DNA of 64,000 bases from positions 136,252 to 200,251 of IMG/VR virus record IMGVR_UViG_3300028549_000507, one strand, 5' to 3'. The notes under the pieces are model-generated. The model saw nothing but the letters and a program-made list of their open reading frames with translations. It was not told the DNA's origin and ran no database searches. The position numbers and the translations under genes were made by a program. This document shows, one piece after another, positions 51,132 through 63,956 of the stretch (position 1 is the stretch's first letter; each line of letters begins with the position of its first letter). Origin of the DNA: a virus (taxonomy: Duplodnaviria > Caudoviricetes).

Positions 51132-51205
51132 TATCCCAAATATGACTCGAACATATACTCCCCGACTTAGAAGGTCGGTGCTTTATCCAATTAAGCTATT
51201 GGGAC
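51132..51205 (-). tRNA. tRNA-Arg (anticodon UCU), no encoded CCA
   Basis: Acceptor GTCCCAA/TTGGGAT, D stem GCTT/AAGC, anticodon stem CCGAC/GTCGG with loop CTTCTAA, T stem ATATG/CATAT with TTCGAGT. Confidence 0.92.
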
Positions 51206-51947: not shown

Positions 51948-52021
51948 TGGGCTGTCCGGAACTCGAATCCGGAACATACCGCTTATGAGACGGATTTTCT
52001 AACCGATTGAAATAACAGCCC
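51948..52021 (-). tRNA. tRNA with CAU anticodon (Met or Ile2), no encoded CCA
   Basis: Acceptor GGGCTGT/ACAGCCC, D stem TTTC/GAAA, loop CTCATAA, T stem CCGGA/TCCGG with TTCGAGT. Confidence 0.88.
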
Positions 52022-55683: not shown

Positions 55684-56754
55684 TTAATTATTATTTAAGT
55701 CATCACCTACAAGATACTTCTCTATCACTTTTCCAGTTATAACTTTCCCAATTATATGGGAAATATTCATATTAACTTTTCTACTAACTTTAGAATTAAG
55801 TTGAATAAACTCCATAACTACTTCATCCAAAAGTTTAGTTTCTTTCGGATTCTCTTTCATAGATACTCCGAGTTTGCCAATAATAATTTTCCCACCTTTA
55901 TTACTTATTAGTGGGGAATCTTTTTCAACTTTATACACATTGATTGTTCTACTCACAAATGATGGGATAATTAATCCTTCACCTTTGTCAATAAATTTTT
56001 GTACAACCAATTCAACAATCTTAAATCTATCATCGAACAAAGATTCTTCAACAGTTCCCAAAGCACCATCATCATTAAACTTCTTACTATAATCAACACT
56101 CAACCCTGAATTAGTTGTTATATCTCGTACAACAATACCCTTTGGCTGAATGATTTTTATATTGGAATGAGATGAATAGTTATTAAAGTTCTGGTAATTT
56201 GCAGACATTCTTATTGAATATAAGTTATCCGGATGGATTTGAGATTCAAATACAGAAGATTTTAGTTTAGCTATTACAAAAATATCCTCAAATTCGAGTT
56301 TCGCTTCCTTACAAATATCCTTATAAGCCTTAGAAATAAGATTTACAAGTTCATTAGTCTCTTCCAGCTTATCTGGAACATAGCAAACATTGATATTAAC
56401 CCAGTGACTTACCTTAATATTAGATACATAAGGCCCTTTAATCTCTATAGGATTATAGATATTAATAAATTCAGGATGTTCCATTGTAAACTCTGGTAAG
56501 ATTACATTTTCAACTCTATCGCTGAGCAATTGTACGTGTTTAGATGAAAGCTGTTGAACGTTCATTATAACACTTACAAAGAAGTGAATAGATCTTACAG
56601 TATCTGTCACCTTGTAATTTGGCAATTTAGATACTTTACCATTTACTGTTGGTACTAAAACATTTGAATTTTTATCAAAAGTAACTCCAATAACATTCAG
56701 TCCAGATCCTCCTTTATTCATAATTGATTGATGAATAGTTGAACCTTTTAACAT
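55684..56754 (-). CDS. Hypothetical protein upstream of the helicase
   Basis: GAGGAGG RBS before MLKGSTIH (track start 56775); no family recognised with confidence. Confidence 0.8.
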   Translation of the reverse strand: MLKGSTIHQSIMNKGGSGLNVIGVTFDKNSNVLVPTVNGKVSKLPNYKVTDTVRSIHFFVSVIMNVQQLSSKHVQLLSDRVENVILPEFTMEHPEFINIYNPIEIKGPYVSNIKVSHWVNINVCYVPDKLEETNELVNLISKAYKDICKEAKLEFEDIFVIAKLKSSVFESQIHPDNLYSIRMSANYQNFNNYSSHSNIKIIQPKGIVVRDITTNSGLSVDYSKKFNDDGALGTVEESLFDDRFKIVELVVQKFIDKGEGLIIPSFVSRTINVYKVEKDSPLISNKGGKIIIGKLGVSMKENPKETKLLDEVVMEFIQLNSKVSRKVNMNISHIIGKVITGKVIEKYLVGDDLNNN

Positions 56755-56800
56755 GCTTTCCTCCTCTGGAAACATTTAAATTTAATTTAAGATTTCTTAA

Positions 56801-56812
56801 CATTACTATGTT
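56801..56812 (-). promoter_or_regulatory. Late-type promoter motif
   Basis: AACA TAGTAA TG. Confidence 0.6.
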
Positions 56813-56974
56813 TTGCCAGTAATGTTTTTATATATCTTCTGTGGAATCTTATTTTTATTATTTACTGTGATATATTGCTTTTATGCATATCCCCCGTAAT
56901 TTTTTATATTATCCACCCTAGGAGATATATATATCCTATTTTACATATTAAAAATAAAAAAAATATGGGCCTTT

Positions 56975-57188
56975 GTTTTCTCACGATAGTTAGAATACTA
57001 TTAGTATCATCTTACGACGATCGTCGTTATACAGATAGTACTATTTACAGTGACTATCATATCGGCCCTGCGGGCGGTGTTCATATGTGCCCCTTCGGGG
57101 TTTCAACTAGTACCATTGTTCCGACCCCAGTCGATCGGTGGTTGATCGTCGCAAGCTAGATCAACCGTATCGATTTTGGAGAGAAAGC
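56975..57188 (-). ncRNA. Candidate structured non-coding RNA (~215 nt), family unknown
   Basis: GC-rich non-coding island; ends pair (GCTTTCTC/GAGAAAAC); internal stems GGTTGATC/GATCAACC, CCCC-GAA-GGGG, GCCC-GCA-GGGC, GATAGT..ACTATC, ACGACG-AT-CGTCGT; early-type promoter just upstream and U-rich tract downstream. Confidence 0.6.
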
Positions 57189-57190
57189 TA

Positions 57191-57204
57191 ATATTATATA
57201 TGTA
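57191..57204 (-). promoter_or_regulatory. Early-type promoter motif in front of the ncRNA candidate
   Basis: Minus strand TACATATATAATAT. Confidence 0.55.
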
Positions 57205-57230
57205 TACAAGGGTATAAAACCAATGTATAA

Positions 57231-57767
57231 TTACAAATAACTCCAGTAAAAACCGAAGGATTTAGAGCCACTATATATGGCATTTTGTATAACTCTATCA
57301 TTATAAAACATATCATGAACGCTTGTATACAACTGTAACAGGTTTCCATTGTCATCAAACCTTCCTACAAGTCCTTTGGGTATGTAATCTTGTATAATAG
57401 ACAGTTCTCTATAGTATTTATAGATATTACTTGATGGATTATTAATGAAATCCTTTTCAATATCAAAGAATGTATTCTCATTATCCATTATAGTACTTAA
57501 TACTGACGATTCATTTGATGTAGTGTATACTCTTCCTAATCCGCATATGTATGTGGGGAAATCAAAATTAGGTTTTAAGTAAGCCATGTCATTTAGATAT
57601 CGCCAGATACAACCATCTATGGAGTATTTCCCTCCATATGCGTAAATCTTACCTTTGCAGCATTCTAAAACCTTCTTATAATCGAATTCTTCAGAATCTA
57701 TATCTGTTAATGAGTTATAGATTCTCTCAATAGTTCTGGTATATGTGTTAATTCTAAGTATTCTCAT
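57231..57767 (-). CDS. NUMOD1-like tandem DNA-binding repeat protein with no evident nuclease domain
   Basis: RIYNSLTD...LECCKGK...GCIWRY and RFDDNGNLLQLYTSVHD...GFYWSY resemble NUMOD1 / IENR1 modules. Confidence 0.7.
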   Translation of the reverse strand: MRILRINTYTRTIERIYNSLTDIDSEEFDYKKVLECCKGKIYAYGGKYSIDGCIWRYLNDMAYLKPNFDFPTYICGLGRVYTTSNESSVLSTIMDNENTFFDIEKDFINNPSSNIYKYYRELSIIQDYIPKGLVGRFDDNGNLLQLYTSVHDMFYNDRVIQNAIYSGSKSFGFYWSYL

Positions 57768-57852: not shown

Positions 57853-58086
57853 TTAGTTAGATCTAACAGGTTTGAATCTGTTAAAATCGTCACAAAGTTT
57901 GATTACTTCCATTGTTGGAAGTCCTGTGACTGATGACATATTTACACTATGACCGTGTAAATATTGTAGAACAGCATCTTCAGCAGAATACGCCTGCGGA
58001 GCATTCGACCCGTAGATCGAATGCTCAATAGCTGTGGAAAGAACCCACTGTGAAATGTGATTCTTTCCTGAAATGTTAATACCCAT
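57853..58086 (-). CDS. Small early hypothetical protein
   Basis: 77 aa; AAGGAGATTACC-ATG leader identical to that of 49815-50003. Confidence 0.75.
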   Translation of the reverse strand: MGINISGKNHISQWVLSTAIEHSIYGSNAPQAYSAEDAVLQYLHGHSVNMSSVTGLPTMEVIKLCDDFNRFKPVRSN

Positions 58087-63543: not shown

Positions 63544-63659
63544 GCTGAATCCTTTCTTAAACATTTTGTATAGATTTACGGAGGGTTATCCGACTACACG
63601 ATCCTGTTAACTACCCTAATGAATATTCGTTAGATATTCATTCCCCTGGACACCCGACG

Positions 63660-63956
63660 TTACCACTTAGGGGTAACATCGTATGTTGGGGCCGACGAAA
63701 GCCCCCATTCCTCGAGGATTTTACTCCACTTGGAATCCTCCGGAGAGGAATCTTCATCGTCAATAACTTCTTTCACCGAAATGGAAGAGTCTGATACATC
63801 CCACACATACGTGTGGTAGTCGTCCTCATTTATGAGGACGAATGGACAGCTATCGTTTGCCACGATAACTGTCGTGTTGCCGAAGTCATCACACACTACT
63901 ACTGTCCAATTCGAGATGGTTCCGATAACAGTTGAAGGAACAGTCACTTTAATCAT
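63660..63956 (-). CDS. Small acidic hypothetical protein
   Basis: 98 aa, AGGAG RBS. Confidence 0.75.
   Translation of the reverse strand: MIKVTVPSTVIGTISNWTVVVCDDFGNTTVIVANDSCPFVLINEDDYHTYVWDVSDSSISVKEVIDDEDSSPEDSKWSKILEEWGLSSAPTYDVTPKW

Follow-up and report, generated by a model that had tools for sequence, protein, structure and literature searches.

A GC-rich non-coding island beside the DnaB-like helicase gene of a phiKZ-like jumbo phage: a candidate gene for a folded RNA

What does a short GC-rich island with no credible reading frame do in the AT-rich genome of a giant phage, and from which strand would it be read? The locus that raises this question lies in a window of 64,000 nucleotides, by which we mean the whole stretch of DNA that was analysed, corresponding to bases 136252-200251 of a 200,251-bp IMG/VR virus record that is 72% complete and has a GC content of 33.1%. 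The phage is an uncultured phiKZ-like jumbo phage, an assignment that follows from the gene content around the island (RNA polymerase [RNAP] beta and a DnaB-like helicase). The genes here are all on the minus strand, in the order RNAP beta subunit (1474 aa; phrog_3148, E 9e-168), 77-aa ORF, 178-aa ORF, gap, 356-aa ORF and a divergent DnaB-like helicase of 557 aa (PF20307). The gap between the 178-aa and 356-aa genes measures 455 nt and houses the island, which occupies 56975-57188 and in 100-nt windows across 57000-57199 has a GC content of 0.46-0.55, compared to 0.24-0.33 in the flanks and 0.331 in the genome. A stretch of 24% GC lies directly after it. The features discussed below are listed here in the order in which they would be transcribed; the domains are those of the comparative structure model, and L004 is the diverged relative described in the next paragraph.

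57190-57205, minus strand: promoter-like box, with the 13-mer CATATATAATATT at 57202-57190 and the 14-mer ATACATATATAATA at 57205-57192
57118-57188 (RNA 1-71), minus strand: Domain 1, a predicted long imperfect hairpin with an 11-nt loop
57035-57116 (RNA 73-154), minus strand: Domain 2, a predicted helix 73-81/146-154 enclosing Hc, Hd and a short helix
57009-57062 (RNA ~127-180), minus strand: hypervariable segment, including a local hairpin at 131-155 and hairpin Hf
56965-57008 (RNA 181-224), minus strand: Domain 3 and tail, the predicted hairpin Hg (GAUACU-AAU-AGUAUU) and a conserved A-rich tail, 95.3% identical to L004
56956-56963, minus strand: T8 run, the presumed 3' boundary as read from the sequence

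Relatives of the locus fall into two groups. L003 is an identical copy from another sample. L004 and L005, which were reached via RNAP beta (98% protein identity over the C-terminal residues 800-1474, with the same gene order), both carry the island. A more distant group, L006-L012, has RNAP-beta identities of 60-68% and keeps the neighbourhood, with a 178-aa homologue, a gap of 500-650 nt, a 356-aa homologue and DnaB; no homologous island was found in this group's gap by eye, by blast or with a covariance model. A search with the covariance model R1 through our own record and the relatives' retrieved stretches (which for L006-L010 are not whole records) returned the two known copies only, and no other copy of the island was found in the 200-kb record. 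INPHARED phages gave no match, either to a distant blastn search with 56800-57300 or to a megablast search with 10 kb. Pattern scans of IMG/VR with three different conserved blocks, and of GTDB genomes, each gave 0 matches, and the one match in a 20-mer scan of JGI metagenomes is a chance match in a GC-rich bacterial contig. IMG/VR scans guided by the 356-aa protein, DnaB and the RNAP-beta C-terminus found no close relatives, and in a set of 5.8 billion proteins the 356-aa protein fell in its own cluster only. Because neither the distant relatives nor the collection scans gave a further copy, the number of distinct island sequences is only two.

The gaps of the distant relatives have contents of their own, and no GC-containing 9-mer of note is common to them. 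In L006 the same gap (L006:5472-6125, minus strand) contains a promoter-like AAATTATATATATAG box, after which come ~270 nt of non-coding sequence rich in purines and a canonical terminator made of a hairpin and T9; by its position, though not by its sequence, this stretch may be a counterpart of the island. The equivalent gap of L009 holds a perfect 13-bp G/C-rich hairpin, CTCAAGGGGGGAG...CTCCCCCCTTGAG (L009:1090-1140).

The neighbouring genes were also inspected. The 356-aa gene probably starts at the ATG at 56754, and not at the mechanical ORF start, 56775; this ATG lies 5 nt behind GGAGGAAAG and yields the 356-aa product as in public gene calls. Between the T8 run and this gene, the AT-rich DNA includes a conserved palindrome, AGGAGATATATATATCCT, at 56900-56957, with three GGATA(T/A)-type boxes after it on the minus strand, spaced ~22-23 nt apart; the 56900-56957 stretch is ~95% identical to L004, well above the silent-site identity. 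The 178-aa protein (57231-57767, minus strand) was given features of a NUMOD1/I-HmuI-type DNA-binding module by a protein language model, with a score of 0.92 that we treat as a lead only. Its first ~70 residues are 36-61% identical in all relatives, where the gene lies beside the same gap in either orientation, and from these sequences a conserved DNA-binding protein seems a better description than a mobile homing endonuclease. The 77-aa ORF (57853-58086, minus strand) coincides with a second, weaker GC-rich patch (0.41-0.47); it is full-length in L004, with 89.6% amino acid identity, and among the 60-nt windows of a 9.8-kb alignment of the window with L004, the third most diverged lies within it.

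A first-pass annotation, made by a model from the sequence, had described the locus as a GC-rich island without a credible ORF, and this description held: the island reaches 55% GC against 33% for the genome, and all three of its minus-strand frames are full of stops. Its only ORF is on the plus strand at 56875-57159 and would encode 94 aa, or 64 aa counted from the ATG at 56965. A plus-strand gene for a small protein of 64-94 aa could be argued from this open frame and from the 6-nt length difference of L004, which is in frame, and is nonetheless extremely improbable: the 94-aa frame is interrupted by an in-frame stop in L004, where there is no downstream ATG, the ORF has no Shine-Dalgarno (SD) sequence, it is convergent with every neighbouring gene, and no plus-strand promoter or terminator was seen. 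No ORF remnant is common to the two variants. Since the minus frames are closed and the plus frame is stopped in L004, the island is, judged by its reading frames, non-coding. The 200-kb record contains 38 GC-rich islands, of which 7 have no ORF of at least 100 aa; five of the seven resemble, by eye, short genes with an SD, an ATG and a terminator, one (63577-63930) was left out, and the seventh is the island described here.

Searches for known RNA families were negative, those with Rfam in both variants, in agreement with the first-pass annotation, which had been unable to match the island by eye to tRNA, tmRNA, RNase P, SRP or the common ribozymes. None of the 4227 models of Rfam 15 matched the island at its gathering threshold; with the cutoff relaxed to E ≤ 10 there were chance-level matches only (E ≥ 0.7, 14-22 bits against thresholds of 46-140). 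Neither ARAGORN nor Rfam found a tRNA or tmRNA in the island, the two tRNAs of the record being at 51132-51205 and 51948-52021. The 6S RNA model gave no match at E ≤ 10, and the folds are multi-branched, not a rod with a large central bubble. The Rfam models for pRNA, for CRISPR direct repeats and for ToxI-type RNAs (type III antitoxin RNAs) had no match in the island. Its one internal repeat has two copies of 12 nt with a spacing of 24 nt, and the GTTGAAAC octamer before Hc amounts to a resemblance only. The 200-kb record, which is 72% complete, has no RVT_1 match of the kind expected beside a retron msr/msd or a DGR template, and RtcB is absent from it. A T-box reading, prompted by a downstream AGGGUGGAU, was rejected: the box is situated after the T-run, and no Rfam T-box model matched. 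Antisense targets in the phage genome were limited to matches of 10-18 nt, which is chance level, the 18-nt one, which falls in the RNAP beta' gene, being same-sense.

The island is framed by signals that read on the minus strand. The suggestion that an early-type promoter lies immediately 5' of it was borne out as a pattern match: CATATATAATATT fits [TC]ATAT[AT]TAATA[GT]T, the pattern of a box family that is found 12 times in the record, with 11 occurrences on the minus strand. The remaining copies sit behind T-rich stretches, and ten of them appear by eye to precede short leaders and genes with an SD and an ATG. The island's own box has a T-rich stretch ~20 nt upstream. This layout, an extended -10-like box with a T-rich element ~20 nt upstream, resembles the one described for early promoters of phiKZ (PMC8244752), and it is by this analogy only that the island's box may be called "early". 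The 14-mer ATACATATATAATA has exactly two occurrences in 200 kb, one at the island and one before a tRNA-shaped small RNA (C1:70903-70916, minus strand); among 30 Markov-shuffled genomes, three had it once and none had it twice. This distribution suggests that a sub-variant of the promoter is reserved for RNA genes, or that a promoter module has been duplicated.

At the other end, the U-rich tract that had been noted after the island corresponds to the T8 run at 56963-56956. The form TAT(8-9)ATT ends both the island unit and the tRNA-shaped RNA unit. No canonical intrinsic terminator was found before the T8 run, which sits 11 nt past the last possible helix. Because the 14-mer and the T8-9 end are common to both units, the promoter/T-run frame of the island resembles what a second stand-alone RNA unit would have, with an insecure 3' end. 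The minus strand is favoured for an RNA from the island because both the box and the T-run are on it and the neighbouring genes are all minus, and because no plus-strand promoter or terminator signals were seen and the G-U pairs of the model become A-C on the plus strand. A count by eye found 88 of 92 model cells paired in the minus reading and 80 of 92 in the plus reading, a comparison biased towards the minus strand, for which the model was drawn up. The plus-strand UUCG and GCAA loops are kept in L004 too, and on that account we assign an RNA from the plus strand a low, though not negligible, probability.

Variation between the window and L004 is distributed very unevenly. Four-fold degenerate sites in five flanking genes differ at 19.7% of positions (92/468), corresponding to ~80% identity, and provide the yardstick for the following segments.

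RNA positions 1-71: 5.6% different between the window and L004 (94.4% identical)
RNA positions 72-187: 43% different (56.9% identical)
RNA positions 188-230: 4.7% different
Downstream intergenic DNA: 4.8% different

The ends of the RNA are more conserved than four-fold sites, and the middle diverges twice as fast as silent sites. The lowest 60-nt windows of the 9.8-kb alignment, with identities of 45-62% against a mean of 92.6%, fall in the middle, at the hypervariable segment, which makes this the most diverged stretch; the middle of L004 is also 6 nt longer. Though largely rewritten, it is still GC-rich and hairpin-forming in L004. Conservation of the ends is not specific to the RNA, because the downstream intergenic DNA is also ~95% identical. 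Ends under purifying selection and a middle that changes at twice the silent rate fit the picture of a conserved handle with a specificity module, proposed below, better than simple decay.

A structure model was derived by comparing the two sequences. Domain 1 is built from four helices, S1 (1-5/67-71), S2 (8-12/60-64), S3 (16-21/53-58) and S4 (23-30/42-49). All four substitutions in this domain (C2U, U5C, A21C and C71U) keep or create pairs in the 71-nt hairpin, and two of them break the alternative helix that would close the 5' end on the 3' end; the 71-nt 5' hairpin is also contained in the minimum free energy (MFE) fold of L004. The comparison thus favours pairing of the 5' end inside the 71-nt hairpin over pairing with the 3' end. 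This bears on the end pairing that the first-pass annotation had drawn between GCTTTCTC and GAGAAAAC, which exists, with 7 of 8 pairs, and is displaced in the model by another 5' partner.

Domain 2 would be closed by the long-range helix 73-81/146-154, which RNAalifold also chose. It contains the GGTACTA/TAGTACT pairing that had been proposed as a possible pseudoknot, which proved real, and is the best-covarying long-range helix, with one GC to AU double change, three wobble-compatible changes and 2 of its 9 pairs lost in L004. It encloses Hc (89-99, CCCC-GAA-GGGG), Hd (114-124, GCCC-GCA-GGGC) and the short helix 102-106/127-131. The stem of Hc changes from CCCC/GGGG to CUCC/GGAG in L004 (CG to UA, both sides), and the helix flanking it changes from CAUAU/AUAUG to UAUA-CA/UGUAUA (by eye). 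In the hypervariable segment, the stem of Hf (RNA 163-174, window 57026-57015) changes from CGAC/GUCG to CGCC/GGCG, an AU to CG change seen by eye, and a different hairpin takes the place of the local hairpin 131-155. Hg, being invariant between the window and L004, is uninformative on structure. The GNA-triloop hairpins (57057-57092) have similar tails, ATATGA after each of them in the window and GTATAA after each in L004; this parallel change fits either mutual pairing or a common binding partner. In the window's MFE fold, the loop of Domain 1 pairs with the Hf region over 12 bp; this pairing was not adopted, being poorly kept in L004.

Support for the model is best described as suggestive. 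The changes include three double compensatory ones in total (Hc, the long-range helix and Hf), two of which fall in the scored alignment, where Hf is misaligned. Cells paired in the model amount to 95.7%, versus 26-54% when partners are slid, in a model drawn from the same sequences; the slid-partner and strand counts are biased for the reason that the structure was derived from these two sequences. In a shuffle control with the two sequences, which has no power at n = 2, 137 of 500 shuffles reached the observed covariation, and with only two distinct sequences the covariation is suggestive, not significant. The check for homologues and covariation that had been proposed at the outset came out in part: a diverged homologue with compensatory changes exists in L004/L005, and with n = 2 some shuffles score as high. 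Fold z-scores against shuffles are -2.1 (minus) and -2.7 (plus) for the window and -1.9 and -1.8 for L004, and do not separate the strands. Fold energy alone is weak evidence, since the gain over shuffles is modest on either strand. The comparative model lies ~15 kcal/mol above each MFE, and we regard the common architecture as a working model.

What, then, is the island? We consider it probable that it is a structured element under selection and that it is read from the minus strand. That this element is a stand-alone RNA is an evenly balanced proposition, and the same weight attaches to the fuller reading we prefer, in which the island would be a lineage-specific minus-strand gene for a folded non-coding RNA of ~230 nt belonging to an orphan family. 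The transcript would run from ~57189 down to the T8 run at 56963-56956 and would consist of a constant 71-nt 5' hairpin, a three-armed middle closed by the long-range helix, and two small 3' hairpins. In the mechanism that we put forward, with low confidence, it would be made as a discrete early transcript and act in trans, as a protein-binding scaffold or decoy, with the conserved 5' and 3' parts forming a constant handle and the fast-changing middle a specificity module. The idea of a novel structured phage RNA, with which the analysis began, is thus upheld in part, in that the island is non-coding, belongs to no Rfam family, has a promoter-like box and carries compensatory changes, and is amended in that the closing helix is disfavoured. 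The functions proposed with it, an RNAP decoy, sponge or scaffold, are another matter, as nothing points specifically to any of them, and we hold a scaffold or decoy mechanism to be rather unlikely.

The preferred reading competes with one in which the RNA is a cis-acting leader or attenuator. The box would then be the promoter of the 356-aa/DnaB operon, the island would start a 435-nt 5' UTR, and the T8 run would be a site of partial, possibly regulated, termination. Giant phage 201phi2-1 is reported to make small RNAs from 5' UTRs through premature termination (PMC11512511), which speaks for this reading. Between the island and the 356-aa start, the promoter family has no further member; in the relatives, too, long non-coding stretches follow a promoter-like TATATATA box ahead of the homologous gene, and the one in L006, of ~270 nt, is closed by a canonical terminator. 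RNA positions 1-21 have two possible partners, in the 5' hairpin or at 200-214, as attenuator-style alternatives; however, the substitutions disfavour the 5'/3' pairing that would be the switch helix, and the T8 run has no terminator hairpin for an alternative pairing to control. The promoter and T-run frame is also the same as that of the clearly stand-alone tRNA-shaped RNA, and 200 nt of separately conserved AT-rich DNA intervene between the T-run and the start codon. With evidence of this kind on both sides, we judge the leader to be fairly unlikely. The island could also act as DNA, as a replication-origin element by the helicase operon that supplies single-stranded hairpins, protein sites, or transcription activating an AT-rich unwinding region. 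The gap between the 178-aa gene and the 356-aa and DnaB genes is kept, at 500-650 nt, in all relatives examined, and in L010 (L010:8959-9014) it has three iteron-like tandem repeats of 18-22 nt beside a stretch of ~16% GC. Directly behind a promoter-like TATATATA box, the gap of L010 (RNAP beta 61% identical) also has a pair of GCGAAGC mini-hairpins, and this architecture, which lies upstream of the helicase operon, can be described from its sequence as origin-like. Triloop hairpins of the C-GAA-G and C-GCA-G types are very stable as DNA also. This applies to those of the island, and similar mini-hairpins occur in the relatives' gaps, GCGAAGC twice in L010 and CCGCAGG in L006; the 24%-GC stretch after the island is a further point in favour. 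Against an origin, the gap in the window itself yielded no family of direct repeats, and cumulative GC skew has no inflection here, tracking gene strand only. Moreover, several of the pairs retained are G-U and would turn into A-C mismatches on the opposite strand of the DNA, the island is framed by box and T-run in the manner of an RNA unit, and the rewritten middle is left without explanation, so that an origin seems distinctly unlikely.

A non-functional or selfish insert, in the sense of a GC-rich foreign or mobile fragment (MITE-like, or the remnant of a lost gene) decaying in a tolerant gap, would account for a different set of facts: the island is lineage-restricted, being absent from relatives at 60-68% RNAP-beta identity, its composition is atypical for the genome, and its middle is highly diverged and carries an indel. 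Imperfect inverted repeats of 19-26 nt flank it, but these are low-complexity TATATA. Decay is difficult to reconcile with ends that are more conserved than four-fold sites and with changes in Hc, Hf and the long-range helix that are compensatory, not random; neither the 200-kb record nor any of the collections scanned gave a further copy, and no ORF remnant is common to both variants. We find this explanation very unlikely.

Returning to the reading as a gene for a folded RNA, one elaboration is a modular early decoy or anti-defence RNA, in which a constant scaffold, made of the 5' hairpin and the 3' hairpins, carries a middle under diversifying selection that mimics or traps a variable factor of the host or of a rival phage. 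This would account for a middle that is twice as diverged as silent sites and is folded all the same, and such an RNA might work together with the tRNA-shaped RNA that has the same special promoter; as a specific mechanism it is unlikely. Giant nucleus-forming phages are known to make small RNAs, but to our knowledge hardly any of these has been given a function or placed in a defined family. In the present phage, two folded RNAs that are unrelated to each other appear to share a dedicated promoter variant. If the island is expressed, the combination of strongly conserved ends with a fast, structured middle would mark an arms-race RNA or a swappable specificity module, and the phiKZ-like group would gain in it a concrete candidate for the manipulation of hosts through RNA. 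Should it act as DNA instead, it would help to locate the replication origin of these phages.

Several known systems invite comparison. ColE1 RNA II and the T4 oriF/oriG R-loop RNAs are origin transcripts, and in them as in the island a promoter, a structured transcript and an AT-rich region follow one another beside replication genes; in the island, however, no persistent-hybrid motif was seen, and the U-run at the end of the transcript would weaken an RNA-DNA hybrid. We know of no origin that has been mapped in any phiKZ-like phage. 6S RNA is of the same ~180-230-nt class as the island model and is likewise a stand-alone, structured, trans-acting RNA, but it forms a single long rod with a central bubble resembling an open promoter, whereas the island RNA would be multi-branched. 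The phi29 pRNA, like the RNA proposed here, is phage-encoded and structured, has an early promoter and is a protein-bound scaffold. It comes from another phage group, and the island has no link to packaging genes and does not match the Rfam pRNA model.

The nearest parallel within the genome is the tRNA-shaped (YrlA-like) RNA unit ~122.5 kb upstream (~70.9 kb, minus strand), which has the 14-nt promoter core, the T8-9 end and the strand in common with the island. Both have a GC-rich folded body with no ORF, although the bodies are dissimilar: the tRNA-shaped RNA is ~92 nt and tRNA-like, whereas the island RNA would be ~230 nt, multi-domain and not tRNA-like. Among giant phages more widely, small RNAs derived from intergenic regions and 5' UTRs are reported (PMC11512511, PMC8244752), and 201phi2-1 has 11 sRNAs, one of which is conserved in phiKZ, EL and phiPA3 (PMC11512511). 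Like the unit predicted for the island, these are short non-coding units of phiKZ-like phages in which a start site is closely followed by a stop (PMC11512511). They are less than 250 nt long and come from transcript mapping, whereas the island is a prediction from sequence; it has no relation to them in sequence or position, and it is set apart by being GC-rich in an AT-rich genome and by its rewritten middle. By this comparison the predicted island RNA is of the same kind as the small RNAs of giant phages, without a common sequence.
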